From: an uncultured Acidobacteriota bacterium
GTDB taxonomy: Bacteria; Acidobacteriota; Thermoanaerobaculia; UBA5066; Gp7-AA6
Length of the DNA: 64,000 bases
Reading direction: 5' to 3'
Assembly (NCBI GenBank): GCA_963733815.1
Contig: CAVTEG010000009.1
Coordinates: 115,580 to 179,579, forward strand
The notes under the pieces are model-generated. The model worked only from the letters and a program-made list of their open reading frames with translations. It had not been told where the DNA came from and did not search any database. The translations under genes and the position numbers were made by a program. Below, piece by piece: positions 19,116 to 61,953 of this stretch (position 1 is the first letter of the stretch; each line of letters opens with the position of its first letter).

Positions 19116-20994
19116 ATGCGACGAGCCCTCCGGCCCCTCCTCGTTTGCGCAGGCCTGGCGACGGCCGCCCTCGCACCCTCCGCCACGAACAAGCCGGTTC
19201 TCCACGGCAAGCACTGGATGGCGATCACCGGCAAGCCGCTGGCGGCCACCGCCGGCGCGATGATCTTCCAGAAGGGCGGCAACGCCGTGGACGCCGCCTG
19301 CGCGATGCTCGCGGCGCGCTGCACGATGTGGGACACGCTGGCCTGGGGCGGCGAGACGCAGGCGCTGATCTACAACCCGAAGACGCGGCAAGGTCATCGG
19401 CATCAACGCGCTCGGCGTCGCGCCGACCGGCGCGACGCCCGAGTTCTTCCACGGCCGAAGGGCATGCCGTATCCGCCGGAGTACGGCCCGCTGGCCGCGG
19501 TGACGCCGGGCACGCCGGGCGGCCTCATGCTCGATGCTGGCCGAGTACGGCAGGCTCTCGCCTCGAAGAGGTGCTGGCGCCGGCGATCGAGATGGCCGAC
19601 GGCTATCCGATCGAGGCCGCAGCTCGCCGACGGCATCGAGCGCGCAGAAGGCGCACGATCAAGCAGTGGCCGTACTCCGCGGCGCGTCTTCCTGCCCCAC
19701 CCGGGCGAGGCCGCGAGGCGCCGCGAGCCGGCGAGATCTTCCGCCAGCCGGACCTGCGCGGCGACGCTGCGCAAGCTGGTCGAGGCGGAGCAGCAGCGCG
19801 CTCGCGGCCGGCAAGAGCCGCAAGGAGGCGATCCACGCGGCCTACGACCGGTTCTACAAGGGCGACATCGCCGCAGGAGTTCGTGCGCGGCGACGCGGGA
19901 GCAGGGCGGGCTGATCACCGCGGAGGACCTGGCGCGACTGGAAGGTCGAAGATCGAGGAGCCGGTGCAGACGACCTACAAGGGCATCGAGGTCTACAAGC
20001 TCGACGTCTGGACGCAGGGCCCGGCGATGCTGCAGGCGCTGAACATGCTCGAGACCGATCGACCTGCAAGGCGATGGGCTACAACAGCGCGCGCTACATC
20101 CACACGCTCTACCAGGCGATGAACCTGGCCTTCGCCGACCGCGACTTCTACTACGGCGATCCCGACTTTCCGCCCGAGGAGCCGCGGCGCGGGCTGCTCT
20201 CGAAGGAGTACGCGAAGGCGCGCGCGCAGAGATCGACTGGGACGAAGAACGACCCCAACGTGAAGCCGGGCGACCCGTATCCGTTCCAGGGCGGCGACGA
20301 ACCCGTTCGCGGATCTGCTCGAGAAGTGGCACAGCCGCGCCGCAGCGGCCGCGAGCCCGACCGCGATCGCGCGAGGCGACGCTCGACGTTCGACGAGGCG
20401 TTCCGCGCCGGCACGACGTCGATCGAGGCCGCCGACGCGAGGGCTGGGTGGTGTCGGTGACGCCGAGCGGCGGCTGGGTGCCGGCGGTGATCGCCGGGCA
20501 CACCGGCATCGGCCTGAGCCAGCGGATGCAGAGCTTCGTGCTCGATCCGGCGCGAGAACCCGTTCAACGTGGTCGAGCCGGGCAAGCGCCCGCGCGTGAC
20601 GCTCACGCCGACGCCTGGCGCTCAAGGACGGCAAGCCCTACCTCGCCTTCGCGGTGCAGGGCGGCGACACCCAGGACCAGAACCTGCTGCAGTTCTTCCT
20701 GAACGTCGTCGAGTTCGGCATGAACGTGCAGGAGGCGGCCGAGGCGCGCCAACATCAACAGCTACCAGATGCGCAGCTCCTTCGGCGACCACGAGTCGCG
20801 GCCCGGGCGCATGACGATGCAGCGACGTCGCGCCGCCGTGGGTGCGCGCCGAGCTGCAGAAGATGGGCTACACAGCTCGAGTTCGAGCCGAGCGACCTCG
20901 GGGCCGATCAACGCCATCTTCTTCGACCGCGAGCACGGCACGATGTGGGGCGGCTCGAGCAACCACGGCGAGGACTACGGCGATCGGCTGGTGA
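19116..20994 (+). pseudogene. ggt: gamma-glutamyltransferase family protein, at least 8 frame changes
   Basis: MRRALRPLLVCAGLATAALA...GKHWMAITGKPLAATAGAMIFQKGGNAVDAACAM. Conserved pieces (GPLAAVTPGTPGGL, YDRFYKGDIA, YKGIEVYKLDVWTQGPAMLQALNMLE, MGYNSARYIHTLYQAMNLAFADRDFYYGDPDF, GTTSIEAAD, SGGWVPAVIAGHTGIGLSQRMQSF, AVQGGDTQDQNLLQFFLNVVEFGMNVQEA, INAIFFDREHGTMWGGSSNHGEDYG) are spread over all three frames. Confidence 0.8.
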
Positions 20995-28207: not shown

Positions 28208-28768
28208 CTACGCCGTTTCCTGTATCCGGGCGGAAGCGCCGCGACCCTTGCGCGCCGCGATCCGCGCGGCGATGCGACGCACGCACTGCGAGAACCGGTC
28301 GATCTCGGAAACCAGGGGATCGTCGCCTCCCTCGGAGGTCAGCTCGAGCGTGTGGCGGTACGCGATGCGCAGCCGCACGTCCGCCCCCAGAGCCGCCCGA
28401 GAGAGGCTCGAGCCGCCGGCGGCCGGAATGGGTCTTTCGCAGAGCACGTGCTTGCCGGCCCGCGCCGCCCGCATCGCGTACTCCACGTGCAGAGCCTCGG
28501 GAAGGACGACGTAGACGATGTCGACCTCGGCGTTGTGCGCGATGCGGTCGTAGGTGTCGAAACCGTAGACCGCCTCGTCCGGGATCCCGTAGCGGCGCGC
28601 CAGCGTCTCCATCGAGGGCGGATCTCCGCCGACGAGGGCGACCGCACGGGATTCCCGACAACGGGAGAACGCGCGAAGGACCTGGGAGAGCGTTAGTGGA
28701 CCGAGGCCCACGAGCGCCCAGCCCACGCGACCTTCGCGGACCGGGCGCTGCGGCTCTCCCTCGTTCAC
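28208..28768 (-). pseudogene. Gfo/Idh/MocA family oxidoreductase, apparently internally deleted (187 codons)
   Basis: GTG 28768 overlaps the upstream stop (GTGA). N-terminal Rossmann part is intact: VGWALVGLGPLTLSQVLRAFSRCRESRAVALVGGD...VDIVYVVLPEALHVEYAMRAARAGKHVLCE. It then joins almost directly to a C-terminal-like piece (PLVSEIDRFSQCV). Confidence 0.5.
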
Positions 28769-29085
28769 CGGGATCCGGCCGGCGCGTTGGCGGGAGGCAT
28801 CGAGCACCGATAGGCCGTGCCTTGCCGCGCGTCGTCGCTGGTGATCAGCAGATAGTTCGCGCCTTTTTCCCGAGCCATGTTCGTCAGGTGCTGCTGCGCC
28901 TCGACGTCCGAAACTTTTTCGTCCGCCTTGATGGTCTCGACCTTGACGTCGTCGATCTTCTGGCAACTCGCCACGACCGACGGGTCTTTCGTCACGGCGA
29001 TCGATTCGAAGCCGTTCTTCGCGCACGCGCCCACCACGAGAGCTGCCGCCATCACACTCAAAAATATCAGGGAATACCGTTTCAT
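28765..29085 (-). CDS. small lipoprotein (DUF4156-like)
   Basis: RBS GGAGGA. Lipobox in MKRYSLIFLSVMAAALVVGAC. ...MAREKGANYLLITSDDARQGTAYRC. Confidence 0.6.
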   Translation of the reverse strand: MKRYSLIFLSVMAAALVVGACAKNGFESIAVTKDPSVVASCQKIDDVKVETIKADEKVSDVEAQQHLTNMAREKGANYLLITSDDARQGTAYRCSMPPANAPAGSR

Positions 29086-29151: not shown

Positions 29152-29907
29152 CTAACGGAGGAGCCGCGCGATTGCGGTTTCGGCCTCGGAGTGAAGCGTG
29201 GGAGGCGCCCCGTAGAAGGCCTCGGCGGCGCGGCCCTGCCGGTCGAAGAGGAGCAGCGTGGGCACGGCGTTGACGTCGCCGAAGGCCCGCGCGATCTCGG
29301 GCGTTCCCATCGCCCAGAAGAGCGGCAGCTGAAGCTGCCCGGTGAGCTTGCGGACGTCGTTCTCCTGTGACTCGACGGCGAGAGCGAGGATCTCGAGCCC
29401 GTCGCCATGGCGCTTCTTCAGGTCGCCGAGCCAGCCCAGCGTGCCGCGGCAGGGCGGACACCAGGTCGCCCAGAGCTCGACGAGCACGACTTTTCCAAGA
29501 AGATCCTTACCCGCGACGCCGCGGCCGTCGAGTCCCGGGATCGTGACCGCGGGAAACGCGGCGACGGCCGCAGAGGCGCGCGGCGATGCCACCGTCCGCG
29601 CATCCTCTTTGCGGCCCGCGAGGACGAGGCCGATCATCTTGGAGAGGTCATCGTGGAAGCGCCGGTGGGCCTCGGCGCTCTTCAAAGGAGCGTAGCGTCC
29701 GCCCTTCTCCTTCGCGTCCTTTCCGTAGAAGCCGAAATCGTTGGGTGTGGCGACGAGCACGTCGTCGACGAAGATCGCCGGATATCGCGTGACGCCGAAT
29801 CGCTTCGCGAGGGCCGAGTCGCCGTAGTTTTCGGCGACGAAGCGCGCCTGTCCGCCGAACTCGGCCACCGCGCTCTGGGCCAGCAAACTTGCCGGATCGG
29901 AGATGTT
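29152..29907 (-). CDS. tandem thioredoxin-fold region (active-site-less/Sec-type Trx fold + TlpA/ResA-like WCPPC redoxin); probably the C-terminal part of one 29152..31008 product
   Basis: In frame with ORF 29908..31029, separated only by a TGA. No ATG/GTG start, SD or signal peptide of its own. KVVLVELWATWCPPCRGTLGWL...VPTLLLFDRQG. Confidence 0.6.
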   Translation of the reverse strand, partial: NISDPASLLAQSAVAEFGGQARFVAENYGDSALAKRFGVTRYPAIFVDDVLVATPNDFGFYGKDAKEKGGRYAPLKSAEAHRRFHDDLSKMIGLVLAGRKEDARTVASPRASAAVAAFPAVTIPGLDGRGVAGKDLLGKVVLVELWATWCPPCRGTLGWLGDLKKRHGDGLEILALAVESQENDVRKLTGQLQLPLFWAMGTPEIARAFGDVNAVPTLLLFDRQGRAAEAFYGAPPTLHSEAETAIARLLR

Positions 29908-31008
29908 TCACGTGTACGGCCAGCGCACCAGCGTGACCGTGACCCGTGCCGGCGGGCGCGGCGGCACGGGGCGCGCCGGCGAAAGGGCCGCGAAGTACGC
30001 CGGCAGGACCTCCGTAGCGATCGCCGGGGCCCGCTCGAGCGCCGGCTTCCTCTGATCGAGCTCCGCCTGCGCGCTCTCGAGGAAGGTCCGGCCGATCGTG
30101 TGGTCGACGCCCGGCTCGGCGAGAGCGCGGCCGAGCTCCGCGAGCCGCGCGGACAGAGCCTCGGCCGCGACCGGCGCCGATGCCGGCGACAACAGCGCGA
30201 CCGCCTGGACCGTCTGGAGGTACCGCAGCATCGCTCCGTACCGCAGGCCCGCGACGTCGAGCTCGCGCGCCTCCTTCAGCCGGGAGCTGGCCCCGATGAA
30301 ATCCGAGTGGCGATCGATCGAGGCCGGCGGCTGATAGGCGGCGAGCAAGCGCGCCTCGAGCGCGTCGAGCTCGGGAACCAGGGACCGCAGGGGAGGGGAT
30401 TTGCCTTGCGTGTCCTCGGACAGCCGCCGGCACAGCGCGGCGAGCTCCCCCTGGGCGCGCGCCTCGCCGATGTAGAAGAGGCCGGCGTCCGGCATGGTGT
30501 TGCGCGCGTACTCGAGGCTCGTGTCGTAGAAGATCTTGACCTGGGGGAGCGAGGCTTCCCCCGTGGCGCGTACGGCGGCGGGCCGCACCCCGTCGAAAGA
30601 CGCCGCGGCAGGCATCGTGAGGCCCGCGCGGAGAACGCCGCCCATCCGTTCCCGCTCGCGCTCGAACGCCGCTTCGTCCTTGCGCTCGCTTTCGGAGCGC
30701 TCGTCGACGTAGGCCGAAGCGGAGAGCAGCATCCGCGCCGCGGCGAGACGCTGAAGAGCGAAGTTCCGGCGCCCGGCCGCGAGCGCCGCGCGCGCCTCCG
30801 CGAGCGCCGGCCCCGTGGCTTTCTGAACGTTCGCCCAGTCTTCGTCGCTCGACCTGTGCTCCCTCGCGAAACGAGACCAGCGGTCGATCTCCTCCGCGAG
30901 CGGGTCGGCGCGCGTCCCCGGCGAGGCACGCGAGGAGACCTGCGTGCCCAGAGTCGCGGCCGAGATCGCCAGGGCCGCGCCGATGAAGAACGCTCGCCGC
31001 ATGCGCAT
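29908..31008 (-). CDS. secreted helical protein of unknown function ending at an in-frame TGA (29908..29910)
   Basis: ATG 31008: MRMRRAFFIGAALAISAATLG signal peptide. Ala/Leu/Arg-rich helical body. The last residues RVTVTLVRWPYT look like beta-strand 1 of the Trx fold that continues after the TGA. Confidence 0.6.
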   Translation of the reverse strand: MRMRRAFFIGAALAISAATLGTQVSSRASPGTRADPLAEEIDRWSRFAREHRSSDEDWANVQKATGPALAEARAALAAGRRNFALQRLAAARMLLSASAYVDERSESERKDEAAFERERERMGGVLRAGLTMPAAASFDGVRPAAVRATGEASLPQVKIFYDTSLEYARNTMPDAGLFYIGEARAQGELAALCRRLSEDTQGKSPPLRSLVPELDALEARLLAAYQPPASIDRHSDFIGASSRLKEARELDVAGLRYGAMLRYLQTVQAVALLSPASAPVAAEALSARLAELGRALAEPGVDHTIGRTFLESAQAELDQRKPALERAPAIATEVLPAYFAALSPARPVPPRPPARVTVTLVRWPYT

Positions 31009-31130
31009 GACTGCGTGCGACTTAAGCACATCCGCGCCGAGAACGTCCCTCGTCCGCCGGCCGCGGCCGTTCGTCCGCGCCCTGTGGGCGATCGTGTCCG
31101 GGGGGTCTCCGGCGGGCGTAGGATCCCGCG

Positions 31131-31970
31131 GTGCCCCGCCCGGACGCGACGACGCCGGAAAGAGTCGTTCTCGTGACGGGAGCGACGTCGGGAATCGGCC
31201 TGGAGACGGCGCGCGCGCTCGCGCGCGAAGGCGCGCTCGTCATCCTCGGCGCGCGCGACCCGGTGCGCGGACAGGCGGTCGCGGATGAGATCGAGCGAGG
31301 CGGAGGCCGGGCGGAGGTTCTTCCGATCGATCTCGCATCCTTCGCCTCGGTGCGGGAAGCGGCGCGGCGGTTCCTCGAGGCGCACCGGAGGCTCGACGTC
31401 CTCGTCAACAACGCCGGTGTCGCGCTTCGCTCCCGACAGGTCACGGCCGACGATCACGAGCGGACCTGGGAGACCAATTTTCTCGGCGGCTTTCTGCTGA
31501 CGCGCCTGCTGCTGCCGGCGCTGAAGGCGGCGCCGCGGCCCCGCGTGGTCAACGTCAGCTCGGAGGCTCATCGCACGGGGCGGATCGACTGGAGCAATCT
31601 CGAGCTCGAGAAAGGCTACGGCGCCTATCAGGCCTACGCAAACACCAAGCTCGCACAGGTTCTCTTCACGCGAGAGCTCGCGCGGCGCGAGCCCCGTGTG
31701 GGCGTCAACGCGGTCCACCCCGGCACGATCGCCACGAGCATCTGGCGCGAGCTGCCGGCGTGGTTGCGCTGGCTTCCGCGCTTCCTGTTCCCGTCGGCGG
31801 TCAAGGGCGCCGCACCGGTGTTGCGCCTGGCCTCGTCGCCGGATCTCGACGGCGTGACCGGCCGCTACTTCAAGAAGCTCCGCGAGGCTTCTCCCACCTT
31901 TGCCGGCCGCAACGACGCGGATGCGGCCCGGCTCTGGGAGACCGCGTCGAAGGCGACGGGCGCGCCCTGA
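31131..31970 (+). CDS. SDR family oxidoreductase
   Basis: VVLVTGATSGIGLETARAL, LVNNAGV, VNVSSEAH, YQAYANTKLA (TGxxxGxG, NNAG, YxxxK). Confidence 0.85.
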   Translation: MPRPDATTPERVVLVTGATSGIGLETARALAREGALVILGARDPVRGQAVADEIERGGGRAEVLPIDLASFASVREAARRFLEAHRRLDVLVNNAGVALRSRQVTADDHERTWETNFLGGFLLTRLLLPALKAAPRPRVVNVSSEAHRTGRIDWSNLELEKGYGAYQAYANTKLAQVLFTRELARREPRVGVNAVHPGTIATSIWRELPAWLRWLPRFLFPSAVKGAAPVLRLASSPDLDGVTGRYFKKLREASPTFAGRNDADAARLWETASKATGAP

Positions 31971-32059: not shown

Positions 32060-32494
32060 ATGGCCGCCGTACCTCGCCGTGCTTCCGAGTTCGTTTACGC
32101 ACTCACGCGGGTCGTCGTGGGCCTGCTCTTCGCCTGCCATGGCGCGCAGAAGCTTTTCGGCGCGCTGGGAGGCGAGCGCGCCGGCGAGCCGCTCATAATC
32201 TTCGCCGGCGTGATCGAGTTCTTCGGCGGACTCCTGATGGCTGTGGGACTGGCGACGCGTGTCGCTGCCTTCCTGTCGTCCGGCGAGATGGCCGTGGCGT
32301 ACTTCAAGGCCCACGCGCCCGGCGGGTTCTGGCCGATCCAGAACAAGGGCGAGCTCGCCATGGTCTACTGCTTCCTCTTCCTTCTGATCGGGACGCTGGG
32401 AGGTGGCCGCTACTCGATCGACGCGCTCATCCGCGCGCGCCGGCCGCCCGAGCACGGCCTCGGCGAAGCGGCGCTGCGCATGGCGAATCGGTAA
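32060..32494 (+). CDS. DoxX family membrane protein
   Basis: RBS AGGAGGA. RVVVGLLFACHGAQKLFG...FAGVIEFFGGLLMAVGLATRVAAFL. Confidence 0.8.
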   Translation: MAAVPRRASEFVYALTRVVVGLLFACHGAQKLFGALGGERAGEPLIIFAGVIEFFGGLLMAVGLATRVAAFLSSGEMAVAYFKAHAPGGFWPIQNKGELAMVYCFLFLLIGTLGGGRYSIDALIRARRPPEHGLGEAALRMANR

Positions 32495-32980: not shown

Positions 32981-33403
32981 TTATTCCAGCTTCGCGTCCA
33001 TCGTGATGCGGGCTTTCAGGAGTCGGGAGATGGGGCAGTTCTTCTCGGCGGACTCGGCGGCCTGCCGGAAAGCGTCGCTCGAAGCTCCCGGGACCTTTCC
33101 GACGAGCTCGAGATGCGACTCGGTAATGGTCCAGCCGGCGCCGTCCTTGTCGAGCGAAACCGTCGCCGTCGTGCGCAGGCTCTCGGCGACCAGGTTGGCT
33201 TTCCCGAGCTCGGCGGAAAGCGCCATCGTGAAGCACCCGGCGTGAGCGGCCGCGACCAGCTCTTCGGGGTTGGTTCCCTTTCCGTCTTCGAAGCGGGTCG
33301 TGAACGAATAGGGGGTTTCCTGGAGAATTCCGCTGTCGGTCGAAAGCGATCCCTTGCCCGTCTTCAGGTCCCCGCGCCATTGCGCCGTTGCTCGCCGCTT
33401 CAT
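32981..33403 (-). CDS. osmC: OsmC family peroxiredoxin
   Basis: ATG 33403 after AGGAGG. KRRATAQWRGDLKTGKGSLSTDSG...GTNPEELVAAAHAGCFTMAL...AEKNCPISRLL. Confidence 0.85.
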   Translation of the reverse strand: MKRRATAQWRGDLKTGKGSLSTDSGILQETPYSFTTRFEDGKGTNPEELVAAAHAGCFTMALSAELGKANLVAESLRTTATVSLDKDGAGWTITESHLELVGKVPGASSDAFRQAAESAEKNCPISRLLKARITMDAKLE

Positions 33404-33463
33404 CGCCGTCCTCCTGTCTGGAAGCCTTTCATTCAAGAATCGCGCCGGGACGTTTCGTCACGG

Positions 33464-61053: not shown

Positions 61054-61953
61054 ATGGACCGTTCCCGTCTGCCGCTGCGTCTGACGGTCGCGGCCGCTAT
61101 CGTGGTGGCCGTGATCGCCAGCCTCGTCGTGGCCAGCCGCGCGCATCGCATGGAGAGTGAAGCCGTCGACGAGGCGGCCGCGCGCCTGACCGCGCTCGCC
61201 GTCCGCGAGGCGCGGCCCCGGGCGACCGGTGTGGCGGGCGAAGCGCTGGCCGCGATGTTCGAAGCGGATCGGCTCGTCCGGACCGCGGCGCTGTCGATCG
61301 AAGTCGCTTCGTATCCGGATGCCGCCGAGAAGGCGGTGGCGATCGCGCAGGCGCAGGGAGGGTATCTCGCCGATTCGCGCGTCTCCCGGGATGCGAGCGG
61401 CCGGCAGAGGGGCACGCTCACCGTGCGCGTTCCCGCCGGCCGCTTCGACGCGGCGTTTCGCGAGCTCAAGGCGCTCGGCCGCGTCGAGGCCGCGAATGTG
61501 GAGACGCGCGACGTGACGAAGGAATACGCGGACCTTTCGGCGCGGGTGGCCGCTAAACGCGAAGCGCGGCAGCGGCTGACCAACATTCTGCGGACCCGAA
61601 CCGCGGATCTCGCCGATCTCGTCTCCGCGGAGAAGGAGCTTTCGCGCCTGATCGAAGAAATCGAACAGCTCGAGGGTCAGCGGATCTACTACGAGCGTCG
61701 GACGGCGCTGTCGACGATCCTCGTGGACCTGGCCGAGCCGGCGGCCTTCCTTCGCGACGGCGCGCTCGCGCCTCTCTTGAGGGCGCTGCGGGATGCGCTC
61801 CCGCTCCTGGCCGGCTCGGCGGCGGCAATGGTCTATACCGCGGCGGCGGCGCTGCCCTGGGCGATCGCCGCTCTCGTGATCTGGAGGATGCGTCGAAAGA
61901 CCGTTTCGCGGCTCGGACTCTCAGCGGCCCGCTTCGCGGGCCAACCGAAATGA
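61054..61953 (+). CDS. DUF4349 domain protein (N- and C-terminal TM, coiled-coil core)
   Basis: ATG 61054 after GGAGGA. ALSIEVASYPDAAEKAVAIAQAQGGYLADS...TLTVRVPAGRFDAAFRELKALGRVEAANVETRDVTKEYADLSARVAAKREARQRL. The last 8 codons and the stop lie inside REP family 2 copy 61932..61986. Confidence 0.7.
   Translation: MDRSRLPLRLTVAAAIVVAVIASLVVASRAHRMESEAVDEAAARLTALAVREARPRATGVAGEALAAMFEADRLVRTAALSIEVASYPDAAEKAVAIAQAQGGYLADSRVSRDASGRQRGTLTVRVPAGRFDAAFRELKALGRVEAANVETRDVTKEYADLSARVAAKREARQRLTNILRTRTADLADLVSAEKELSRLIEEIEQLEGQRIYYERRTALSTILVDLAEPAAFLRDGALAPLLRALRDALPLLAGSAAAMVYTAAAALPWAIAALVIWRMRRKTVSRLGLSAARFAGQPK

Follow-up and report, generated by a model that had tools for sequence, protein, structure and literature searches.

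In a 64,000-nucleotide stretch of DNA from an uncultured Acidobacteriota bacterium (GenBank assembly GCA_963733815.1, contig CAVTEG010000009.1, positions 115,580 to 179,579; referred to below, at its full length, as the window), the minus-strand region 31008..29152 is very probably one gene for an exported multidomain selenoprotein. The comparative sequence data indicate, with equally high confidence, that an in-frame UGA at codon 367 of this gene is recoded to selenocysteine (Sec). The one-gene reading is preferred because the UGA column is conserved among relatives, orthologues with cysteine at this position are uninterrupted, and the hairpin that follows the UGA, a selenocysteine insertion sequence (SECIS), is under selection. 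A first-pass annotation, made from the letters of the window, had proposed a candidate selenoprotein joining two open reading frames (ORFs). The present analysis supports that proposal, and each of the tests named beforehand as able to refute it gave a favorable result, as far as the tests could be run.

The gene consists of 618 codons plus a TAG stop, with TGA as codon 367. The upstream ORF starts with ATG at 31008 (alternative start, GTG at 31029) and stops at the TGA at 29910..29908 on the minus strand. Past this TGA the frame stays open for another 251 codons, up to the TAG at 29154..29152. A rereading of the window reproduced the ORF coordinates, the shared frame and the sequence reported in the first-pass annotation, including the position of the TGA and the end at 29152. 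Around the TGA, read-through gives ...VTVTLVRWPYT(TGA)NISDPASLLAQS..., and the joined translation runs ...PPARVTVTLVRWPYT-(TGA)-NISDPASLLAQSAVAEFGG...RYPAIFVDD... and, further on, ...ELWATWCPPC..., with WCPPC encoded at 29463..29449. The predicted Sec residue precedes the cis-proline by 43 residues (U367 to P410), the spacing that had been counted initially. The features of the gene are as follows.

29152..31008, minus strand: complete predicted selenoprotein gene, from the ORF reading and the end-to-end alignment of uninterrupted Cys orthologues.
30931..31008, minus strand: predicted Sec-type signal peptide (MRMRRAFFIGAALAISAATLGTQVSS), read from the sequence by eye; the cleavage site is approximate.
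29974..30912, minus strand: N-terminal all-alpha domain, approximately residues 33-345, without conserved Cys, from an AlphaFold model.
29614..29946, minus strand: small domain of predicted thioredoxin/glutaredoxin fold, approximately residues 355-465, with the motif W-P-Y-T-U-N-I-S and the cis-Pro loop R-Y-P, from AlphaFold topology and hhalign.
29908..29910, minus strand: UGA codon, very probably read as selenocysteine (residue 367), from column conservation and Cys orthologues.
29880..29895, minus strand: putative SECIS hairpin CCGGCA-AGUU-UGCUGG, +15..+30 from the U of the UGA, with a 6-bp stem, an A21:U24 closing pair, and G22 and U23 exposed.
29170..29559, minus strand: C-terminal TlpA/ResA-like thioredoxin domain with W-C-P-P-C, from Pfam and Foldseek.

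Public protein databases present this family almost entirely as two pieces. A protein search with residues 1-479, carrying Cys at the position of the TGA, returned 868 relatives. Among the 120 best matches, 118 were proteins of about 365 amino acids that ended exactly at ...VTLVRWP[YF]T. The remaining two were uninterrupted (P0007, 621 amino acids, WPYTCNLSDP; P0008, 743 amino acids, WPYSCNLSDP) and aligned end to end with the joined protein of the window. When the downstream half was used as the query, separate 244-amino-acid proteins beginning with LLAQS or MLAQS were recovered under the names 'TlpA disulfide reductase family protein' or 'thiol-disulfide isomerase'; the halves of orthologues are thus entered as a 'hypothetical protein' of about 365 amino acids and a 244-amino-acid 'TlpA family disulfide reductase'. 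When 1.84 billion cluster representatives were searched exhaustively with HMMER at a cut-off of E <= 1e-30, 420 clusters (50% identity) matched. Since 120 of the 150 clusters listed stop at the same residue, WP[YF]T, and the halves are deposited apart, public annotation splits the family systematically at one codon. The HMMER search also revealed a third, more divergent uninterrupted form (P0337, WPYTCSLSDP). The three Cys orthologues are 599-743 amino acids long and have TGC at the aligned codon, and such forms are rare, accounting for about 1-2% of matches; no residue besides Cys was seen in place of the UGA. Three further sequences that resembled read-through forms (P0359, P0362 and P0380) were rejected as frameshifted miscalls.

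The same column was examined at the DNA level. A scan of one genome per GTDB species identified 122 relatives, and the best 80 of these 122 loci were kept for the DNA comparisons. They derive mostly from Acidobacteriota (Thermoanaerobaculia, Vicinamibacteria and Holophagales); a few of the carrier bins are labelled Planctomycetota, Eisenbacteria, Verrucomicrobiia, Acidimicrobiia or Myxococcota. Together with a second, tandem copy at one locus (L053) and the gene of the window, the set comprises 82 gene copies with a protein identity of 47-98% (median, 60%). TGA occupied the aligned column in all 82 copies, TAA, TAG or a sense codon in none, and the flanking protein motif was invariant. Both kinds of ortholog anticipated in the first-pass annotation, single polypeptides with Cys at the TGA column and genes with an in-frame TGA there, were therefore found. 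Furthermore, seven codons separate the TGA from the annotated downstream start; in these, codon positions 1 and 2 were invariant across the 80 sequences and only third positions varied, and the supposed start codon was CTG in 45 of the 80. This pattern indicates that the seven-codon stretch is translated as part of the upstream frame.

Some genomes carry more complex arrangements. The two family copies at L053 lie in tandem on one contig (148-150 and 1934-1936), each with its own TGA and SECIS, and P0344 is an ORF in which a C-terminal half (thioredoxin-like plus TlpA) is directly followed by a further N-terminal helical domain. These cases suggest that fused multimodule versions exist in some genomes.

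The hairpin described in the first-pass annotation was borne out by the alignment in its main part. The pairs C15-G30, C16-G29, R17-U28, G18-C27, C19-G26 and A20-U25 were formed in all 80 aligned sequences, and RNAalifold yielded the same hairpin. At the closing pair 21:24, 45 of the 79 distinct sequences have G:C and the other 34 have A:U (35 when all 80 rows are counted); there was no mismatch or wobble. On a neighbor-joining tree this double switch occurred at least 9 independent times without intermediates. G22 and U23 were invariant. Position 17 was only ever G or A, giving G.U or A-U with the invariant U28, even though the preferred Pro codons are CCG and CCC. The part of the proposal that did not stand was the extension by a lower CUC/GAG helix, which paired in 74% of cells, was broken in 30 of the 79 sequences, and was rejected.

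Codon usage points in the same direction. GCA, AGT and TTG, noted initially as atypical for the high-GC window, are rare in the family genes yet frozen in the hairpin. GCA accounts for 3.5% of Ala codons, GGT for 5.7% of Gly, AGT for 2.6% of Ser, TTG for 3.9% of Leu and CCA for 3.1% of Pro, and these codons are overused in the hairpin; all 80 sequences have GCA there, and the T at the third position of GGT/AGT never changes. Among the 1,119 TGA triplets of the window, only this one precedes a 6-bp hairpin whose tetraloop is of the form NGUN. A search of the window and the locus flanks for the pattern TGA-N15-GCARGTYTGC recovered the 82 family copies only.

The core of the hairpin, GCAGGUCUGC at +18..+27, has the sequence and the spacing from the UGA of the experimentally defined SECIS of Escherichia coli fdhF. 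In the fdhF gene taken from NC_000913.3, positions +18..+27 after the Sec codon read GCAGGTCTGC, the same ten bases as the family consensus. In both cases the hairpin lies directly 3' of the UGA inside the coding region, the apex is GCA-GGU-CUG-C, a G and a U are exposed in the loop, and the closing positions 21 and 24 are complementary. The family hairpin differs from that of fdhF in that its lower stem (C15-G30, C16-G29, R17-U28) is fully paired, in that about 43% of family members have A21:U24 (AGU UUG) instead of G21:C24, and in that it has no conserved lower helix.

The three Cys forms show what becomes of this element when the codon is TGC. The form at L084 reads GCA GCT CTG CTG ACA, with G22 and the closing G30 lost; that at L085 reads GCG AGC CTG, with U23 lost and preferred codons back; and at L086 (CCC GCG AGC CTG CTT) the hairpin is gone. 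G22 or U23 of the loop was thus lost in all three, and the preferred codons GCG and AGC were restored in two of the three. Because the element has decayed in every Cys form, it appears to be maintained only where the codon is UGA. Judged from these alignments, the hairpin is a SECIS of the SelB-binding type and has been under selection as RNA.

Sequence databases recognize only the C-terminal part of the protein. Pfam and NCBIfam matched the TlpA/redoxin domain (residues 484-613 of 618) and nothing around the TGA or in residues 1-360. In Pfam the C-terminal domain matched Redoxin (4.8e-11), Thioredoxin_8 (1.2e-8) and AhpC-TSA, and its WCPPC was invariant; in Foldseek it matched ResA, DsbE and TlpA structures at an E value of about 1e-5 with target template-modelling (TM) scores of 0.5-0.7. 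Its NCBIfam scores for ResA (48 versus 170 bits), TlpA (43 versus 230) and DsbE (25 versus 123) were below the cut-offs. By sequence, then, the C-terminal domain classifies as a member of the TlpA superfamily and of no named subfamily. The helical domain had no sequence match in Pfam, NCBIfam or the PDB. A Foldseek search of the PDB with the whole protein gave TlpA-domain matches only among the 50 best matches listed; because all 50 fall in this domain, the result is silent on the helical and Sec domains.

The remainder of the protein was examined in two AlphaFold models of P0007, a Cys form, made with the N-terminal and C-terminal alignments kept separate. Residues 38-345 were modelled as all-helical, with 12-13 helices and a predicted local distance difference test (pLDDT) score mostly above 90 with the N-terminal alignment (model m0bf4a2c04ef3), followed by a Pro-rich linker; the TlpA-like domain extended from about residue 490 to 620. 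Between them lies a middle domain with b1 at 359-365, C370, a1 at 375-385, b2 at 391-397, a2 at 402-407, P413, b3 at 414-417, b4 at 420-423 and a3 at 448-466. Its topology, b1-a1-b2-a2-b3-b4-a3 with the Cys/Sec between b1 and a1, was the same in both models. In hhalign, the middle-domain profile aligned weakly with E. coli TrxA (E = 0.05), with the cis-Pro loops aligned and in a register that sets Sec to C32, Ser to C35, Trp to W28 and the cis-Pro to P76. Thus, the claim that the TGA falls on the N-terminal catalytic Cys of a thioredoxin fold is borne out by two approaches that agree, one of them through a weak match. We therefore consider, with moderate confidence based on modelling, that the middle domain has a thioredoxin/glutaredoxin fold with Sec at the nucleophile position. 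Conservation among the redox residues of the protein is limited to U367, C517 and C520 and does not extend to the one Cys in the helical domain. N-termini equivalent to the predicted signal peptide are present in P0007, P0050 and P0074.

One alternative is that the TGA is the true stop of a helical protein and that a separate gene for a TlpA-family reductase starts at a TTG seven codons further on. Gene callers and the Prokaryotic Genome Annotation Pipeline (PGAP) annotate the orthologues in this way, a TTG is indeed found at 29886, and TGA is an ordinary stop elsewhere in the window. The first-pass annotation had also made the last point: TGA is the normal stop of Pfam-supported neighboring genes (an alpha/beta hydrolase and two SDR genes), so the genetic code is not globally changed. 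However, the supposed start, CTG in more than half of the orthologues, is not accompanied by a Shine-Dalgarno sequence, the seven intervening codons are under purifying selection at the protein level, and the stop is TGA, never TAA or TAG, in all 82 copies. Moreover, b1 of the modelled thioredoxin fold is encoded before the stop, the Cys orthologues are single polypeptides, and the downstream piece has no signal peptide, yet TlpA domains act in the periplasm. Two separate genes are thus highly improbable. A nonsense mutation or miscalled base in a former Cys gene would, in a single sequence, give the same picture through one TGC-to-TGA change. Such a pseudogene or assembly error is practically negligible as an explanation and can be regarded as excluded, because 81 further genes, assembled independently and 47-98% identical in protein sequence, carry the same TGA; in addition, both halves are under purifying selection.

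A further alternative is the insertion of an amino acid other than Sec; the pairing of Cys and TGA forms alone cannot tell Sec from Cys. The UGA might be served by Cys delivery of the selC*/selB* type, or an allo-tRNA acting as an opal suppressor or near-cognate read-through might yield Cys or Trp. A selC* tRNA(Cys) with a second SelB is known from Deltaproteobacteria, and acidobacterial allo-tRNAs may act as nonsense suppressors (Mukai et al., PMC5389517). The selC*/selB* systems were, however, reported in other phyla and not in Acidobacteria (PMC5389517), and the family hairpin has the SelB-binding apex of fdhF, equally spaced from the UGA. A formate dehydrogenase gene of the Sec type (fdhA) with the same GGU at +21..+23 lies on a contig that also carries a family member (L008). 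Furthermore, if Cys were the product, one would hardly expect more than 99% of lineages to retain a costly UGA and hairpin when a single mutation would give TGC. Recoding of the UGA to something other than Sec is accordingly very unlikely.

Searches for the Sec machinery itself (tblastn with E. coli SelA, SelB and SelD; ARAGORN for tRNA-Sec) detected no selA, selB, selD or tRNA-Sec in the 64-kb window or in approximately 1.3 Mb of flanks of related loci. This negative result belongs with several others that weigh against a Sec-decoding thioredoxin-fold protein. Folded as a single sequence, the 76 nucleotides around the UGA were unremarkable (z = 0.31 versus shuffles). An Rfam scan of 29700..30100 gave no SECIS match, only a chance lncRNA at E = 5.4, and the hairpin is without the bulged U that fdhF has at +17. 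With regard to the protein, the active-site loop (residues 366-373) had a pLDDT below 50; the Sec-bearing domain had no significant Pfam match (best, Thioredoxin_3 at E = 0.18 and HyaE at 0.21, with DUF1525 also below threshold); and a PDB profile search with the same domain gave PDI and BdbD at non-significant E values of 0.2-0.3. No gene neighborhood (synteny) is conserved across the family loci, which offer no hint of a substrate. The evidence for the hairpin is far above chance because of the comparative data, not because of the single-sequence fold.

Selenocysteine use in the carriers is suggested by other sources. On contig L008, an fdhF-like formate dehydrogenase gene (L008:19940-21817) lies 8 kb from the family member and has a TGA (20177-20179) aligned with U140 of E. 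coli FdhH (CNRT*HAPSVAGL), with GGU at +21..+23. The contig was assigned to a Planctomycetota bin, although it carries a family member typical of the acidobacterial ones. Acidobacteria have been recorded as Sec users with three selenoprotein families (PMC1794560), and Occallatibacter riparius is among the Sec-utilizing test genomes of a recent study (PMC12013277). Within the window, ARAGORN called a 92-nucleotide 'tRNA-Lys(CUU)' at 61743-61834 (plus strand), which was considered as a candidate suppressor and rejected: its acceptor stem is mismatched, it has an odd long arm, and the Rfam tRNA model gave no match at this position at E <= 0.1. The call is probably a false positive in GC-rich DNA. 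Acidobacterial allo-tRNAs of about 92 nucleotides have been described (PMC5389517). Other TGA codons with coding-like flanks in the window were, in a scan of its whole length, only antisense shadows of high-GC genes.

The family is one of thioredoxin-fold bacterial selenoproteins that is widespread and uniformly misannotated. It was not found in the lists of known families that were checked. No model of NCBIfam 20.0 (June 2026) covers residues 1-480, and the model for a TlpA-type selenoprotein with the motif WAxxUGC (NF041054) scored 25 bits against a cut-off of 300, for the C-terminal domain only. In an inventory of 119 prokaryotic selenoprotein families from May 2026 (PMC13188914, Table 1), none is described as combining a helical domain, a UxxS thioredoxin-fold domain and a CxxC TlpA domain, the families being set apart here by their descriptions. 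In that inventory, UxxS is given only for rhodanese, arsenate reductase and a Prx-like family, and TlpA-type families appear only with Sec inside the TlpA motif (PMC13188914). Deep-Sep (PMC12013277) added no such family, and the text of BSepDB (PMC13326102), which compiles previously reported families only, contains no matching term. Within the lists checked, the protein family thus appears to be new, with a small risk of overlap given that listed families were compared by description; the decoding mechanism is the known bacterial one.

We lean slightly toward a broader reading: the selenoprotein family would be undescribed and nearly obligate, with a Sec-to-Cys ratio of approximately 100:1 and the Sec in a cryptic thioredoxin-fold domain set between a domain of new fold and a TlpA reductase domain, and it may be among the commonest selenoproteins of soil and sediment Acidobacteriota. 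The rarity of Cys homologues, together with the uncultured state of the carriers, plausibly accounts for its having been missed by screens based on Sec/Cys homology.

Among its closest counterparts in kind are the TlpA/redoxin-domain selenoproteins, which are likewise exported proteins of the thiol-disulfide oxidoreductase type. In those proteins the Sec lies inside the CxxC motif of the TlpA domain itself, whereas here the TlpA domain keeps Cys-Pro-Pro-Cys and the Sec is in a separate upstream U-x-x-S domain. With respect to the active site, glutathione peroxidase (UxxT), Sec-containing arsenate reductase (UxxS) and monothiol glutaredoxins (CxxS) share with the family a Sec or Cys at the N-terminus of a1 and a hydroxyl residue at +3, and such a residue implies a chemistry that needs an external resolving thiol. 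The family has no significant sequence similarity to these enzymes, and its motif, WPYT-U-N-[LIV]-S-D-P, and domain context are distinct. Fused periplasmic relays are represented by PilB of Neisseria, which joins a TlpA-like domain with MsrA and MsrB, and by peroxiredoxin-glutaredoxin hybrids; in these, a TlpA-like or glutaredoxin CxxC domain is fused to a catalytic domain with a single nucleophile and is thought to recycle it. By analogy, the present protein may be another CxxC domain covalently fused to a single-nucleophile domain. It differs in that its catalytic domain is a minimal thioredoxin fold with Sec, rather than an Msr or peroxiredoxin, and in that it has an extra helical domain of 310 residues.

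These comparisons suggest how the protein might be made and might work. A ribosome reaching the UGA at codon 367 would meet, 12 nucleotides downstream, a hairpin that presents an exposed G-U on a G/C-rich stem. The hairpin would recruit SelB carrying Sec-tRNA(Sec), Sec would be inserted, and translation would continue to the TAG at 29152. The product would consist, in order, of a signal peptide, a new all-helical domain, a thioredoxin-fold domain with U-x-x-S, and a TlpA-like C-P-P-C domain, and the signal peptide would presumably export it to the periplasm. There, the single selenol could attack an oxidized substrate, such as a disulfide, sulfenate or peroxide-type target, which the helical domain probably holds. 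Because position +3 is Ser, the adduct could not be resolved within its own motif; the selenenylsulfide or selenenic acid would instead be resolved by the fused TlpA-like CPPC pair, which could in turn be re-reduced by a membrane electron donor of the DsbD/CcdA type. A periplasmic redox relay of this kind between the Sec domain and the TlpA-like domain, which would resemble the fused relays, is a tentative proposal that we consider somewhat doubtful.

The genes near the family loci are varied. Recurring neighbors are common acidobacterial paralogues: MacB/FtsX permeases, MBL hydrolases, TPR kinases and S15 peptidase. The gene of the Cys form P0337 (L086:1-7800, GCA_018268315.1) is flanked by an exbB-exbD-tonB-TonB-receptor cluster on one side and by genes for cytochrome c maturation (ccmC-like, PF01578, and ccmB) on the other. 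This exbB/ccm context is the only hint of function that the neighborhoods provide, and it was not seen beside TGA forms. In the window, a 106-amino-acid ORF with a lipoprotein-type signal (lipobox VGAC) at 28765-29085 (minus strand) follows the selenoprotein gene at a distance of 66 nucleotides; Pfam gave no match for it, and it does not adjoin the selenoprotein family in other genomes. An SDR gene at 31131-31970 is transcribed divergently from the selenoprotein gene, and genes for DoxX (32060-32494, plus strand) and an OsmC-like protein (32981-33436, minus strand) lie less than 3 kb from it. All three belong to families associated with oxidative stress or redox functions; this local arrangement is not conserved at related loci.

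With regard to annotation, the same error recurs in hundreds of database entries; the family comprises 420 or more clusters at 50% identity, and the gene is carried by 122 GTDB species representatives. The family also exposes a blind spot of screens that depend on Sec/Cys homology: the rule of 'two Cys homologues among top ten' (deep-Sep, PMC12013277) would fail here. For studies of RNA recognition, it provides a natural data set on SelB binding, in which G22-U23 never varies, the 21:24 pair has undergone 9 or more switches, and the element decays upon the change from UGA to UGC. The protein brings a helical domain without known relative, and the combination of U-x-x-S and C-P-P-C is a testable design for a selenol-thiol relay. 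If the present reading is correct, the SECIS core identical to that of fdhF might allow direct expression in E. coli. The finding adds to the selenoproteome of the Acidobacteriota, which are abundant in soil and poorly cultured, and points to selenium-dependent redox chemistry in their envelope. Should the broader reading given above hold, the redox chemistry of the envelope would routinely depend on selenium in a phylum that dominates in soil.

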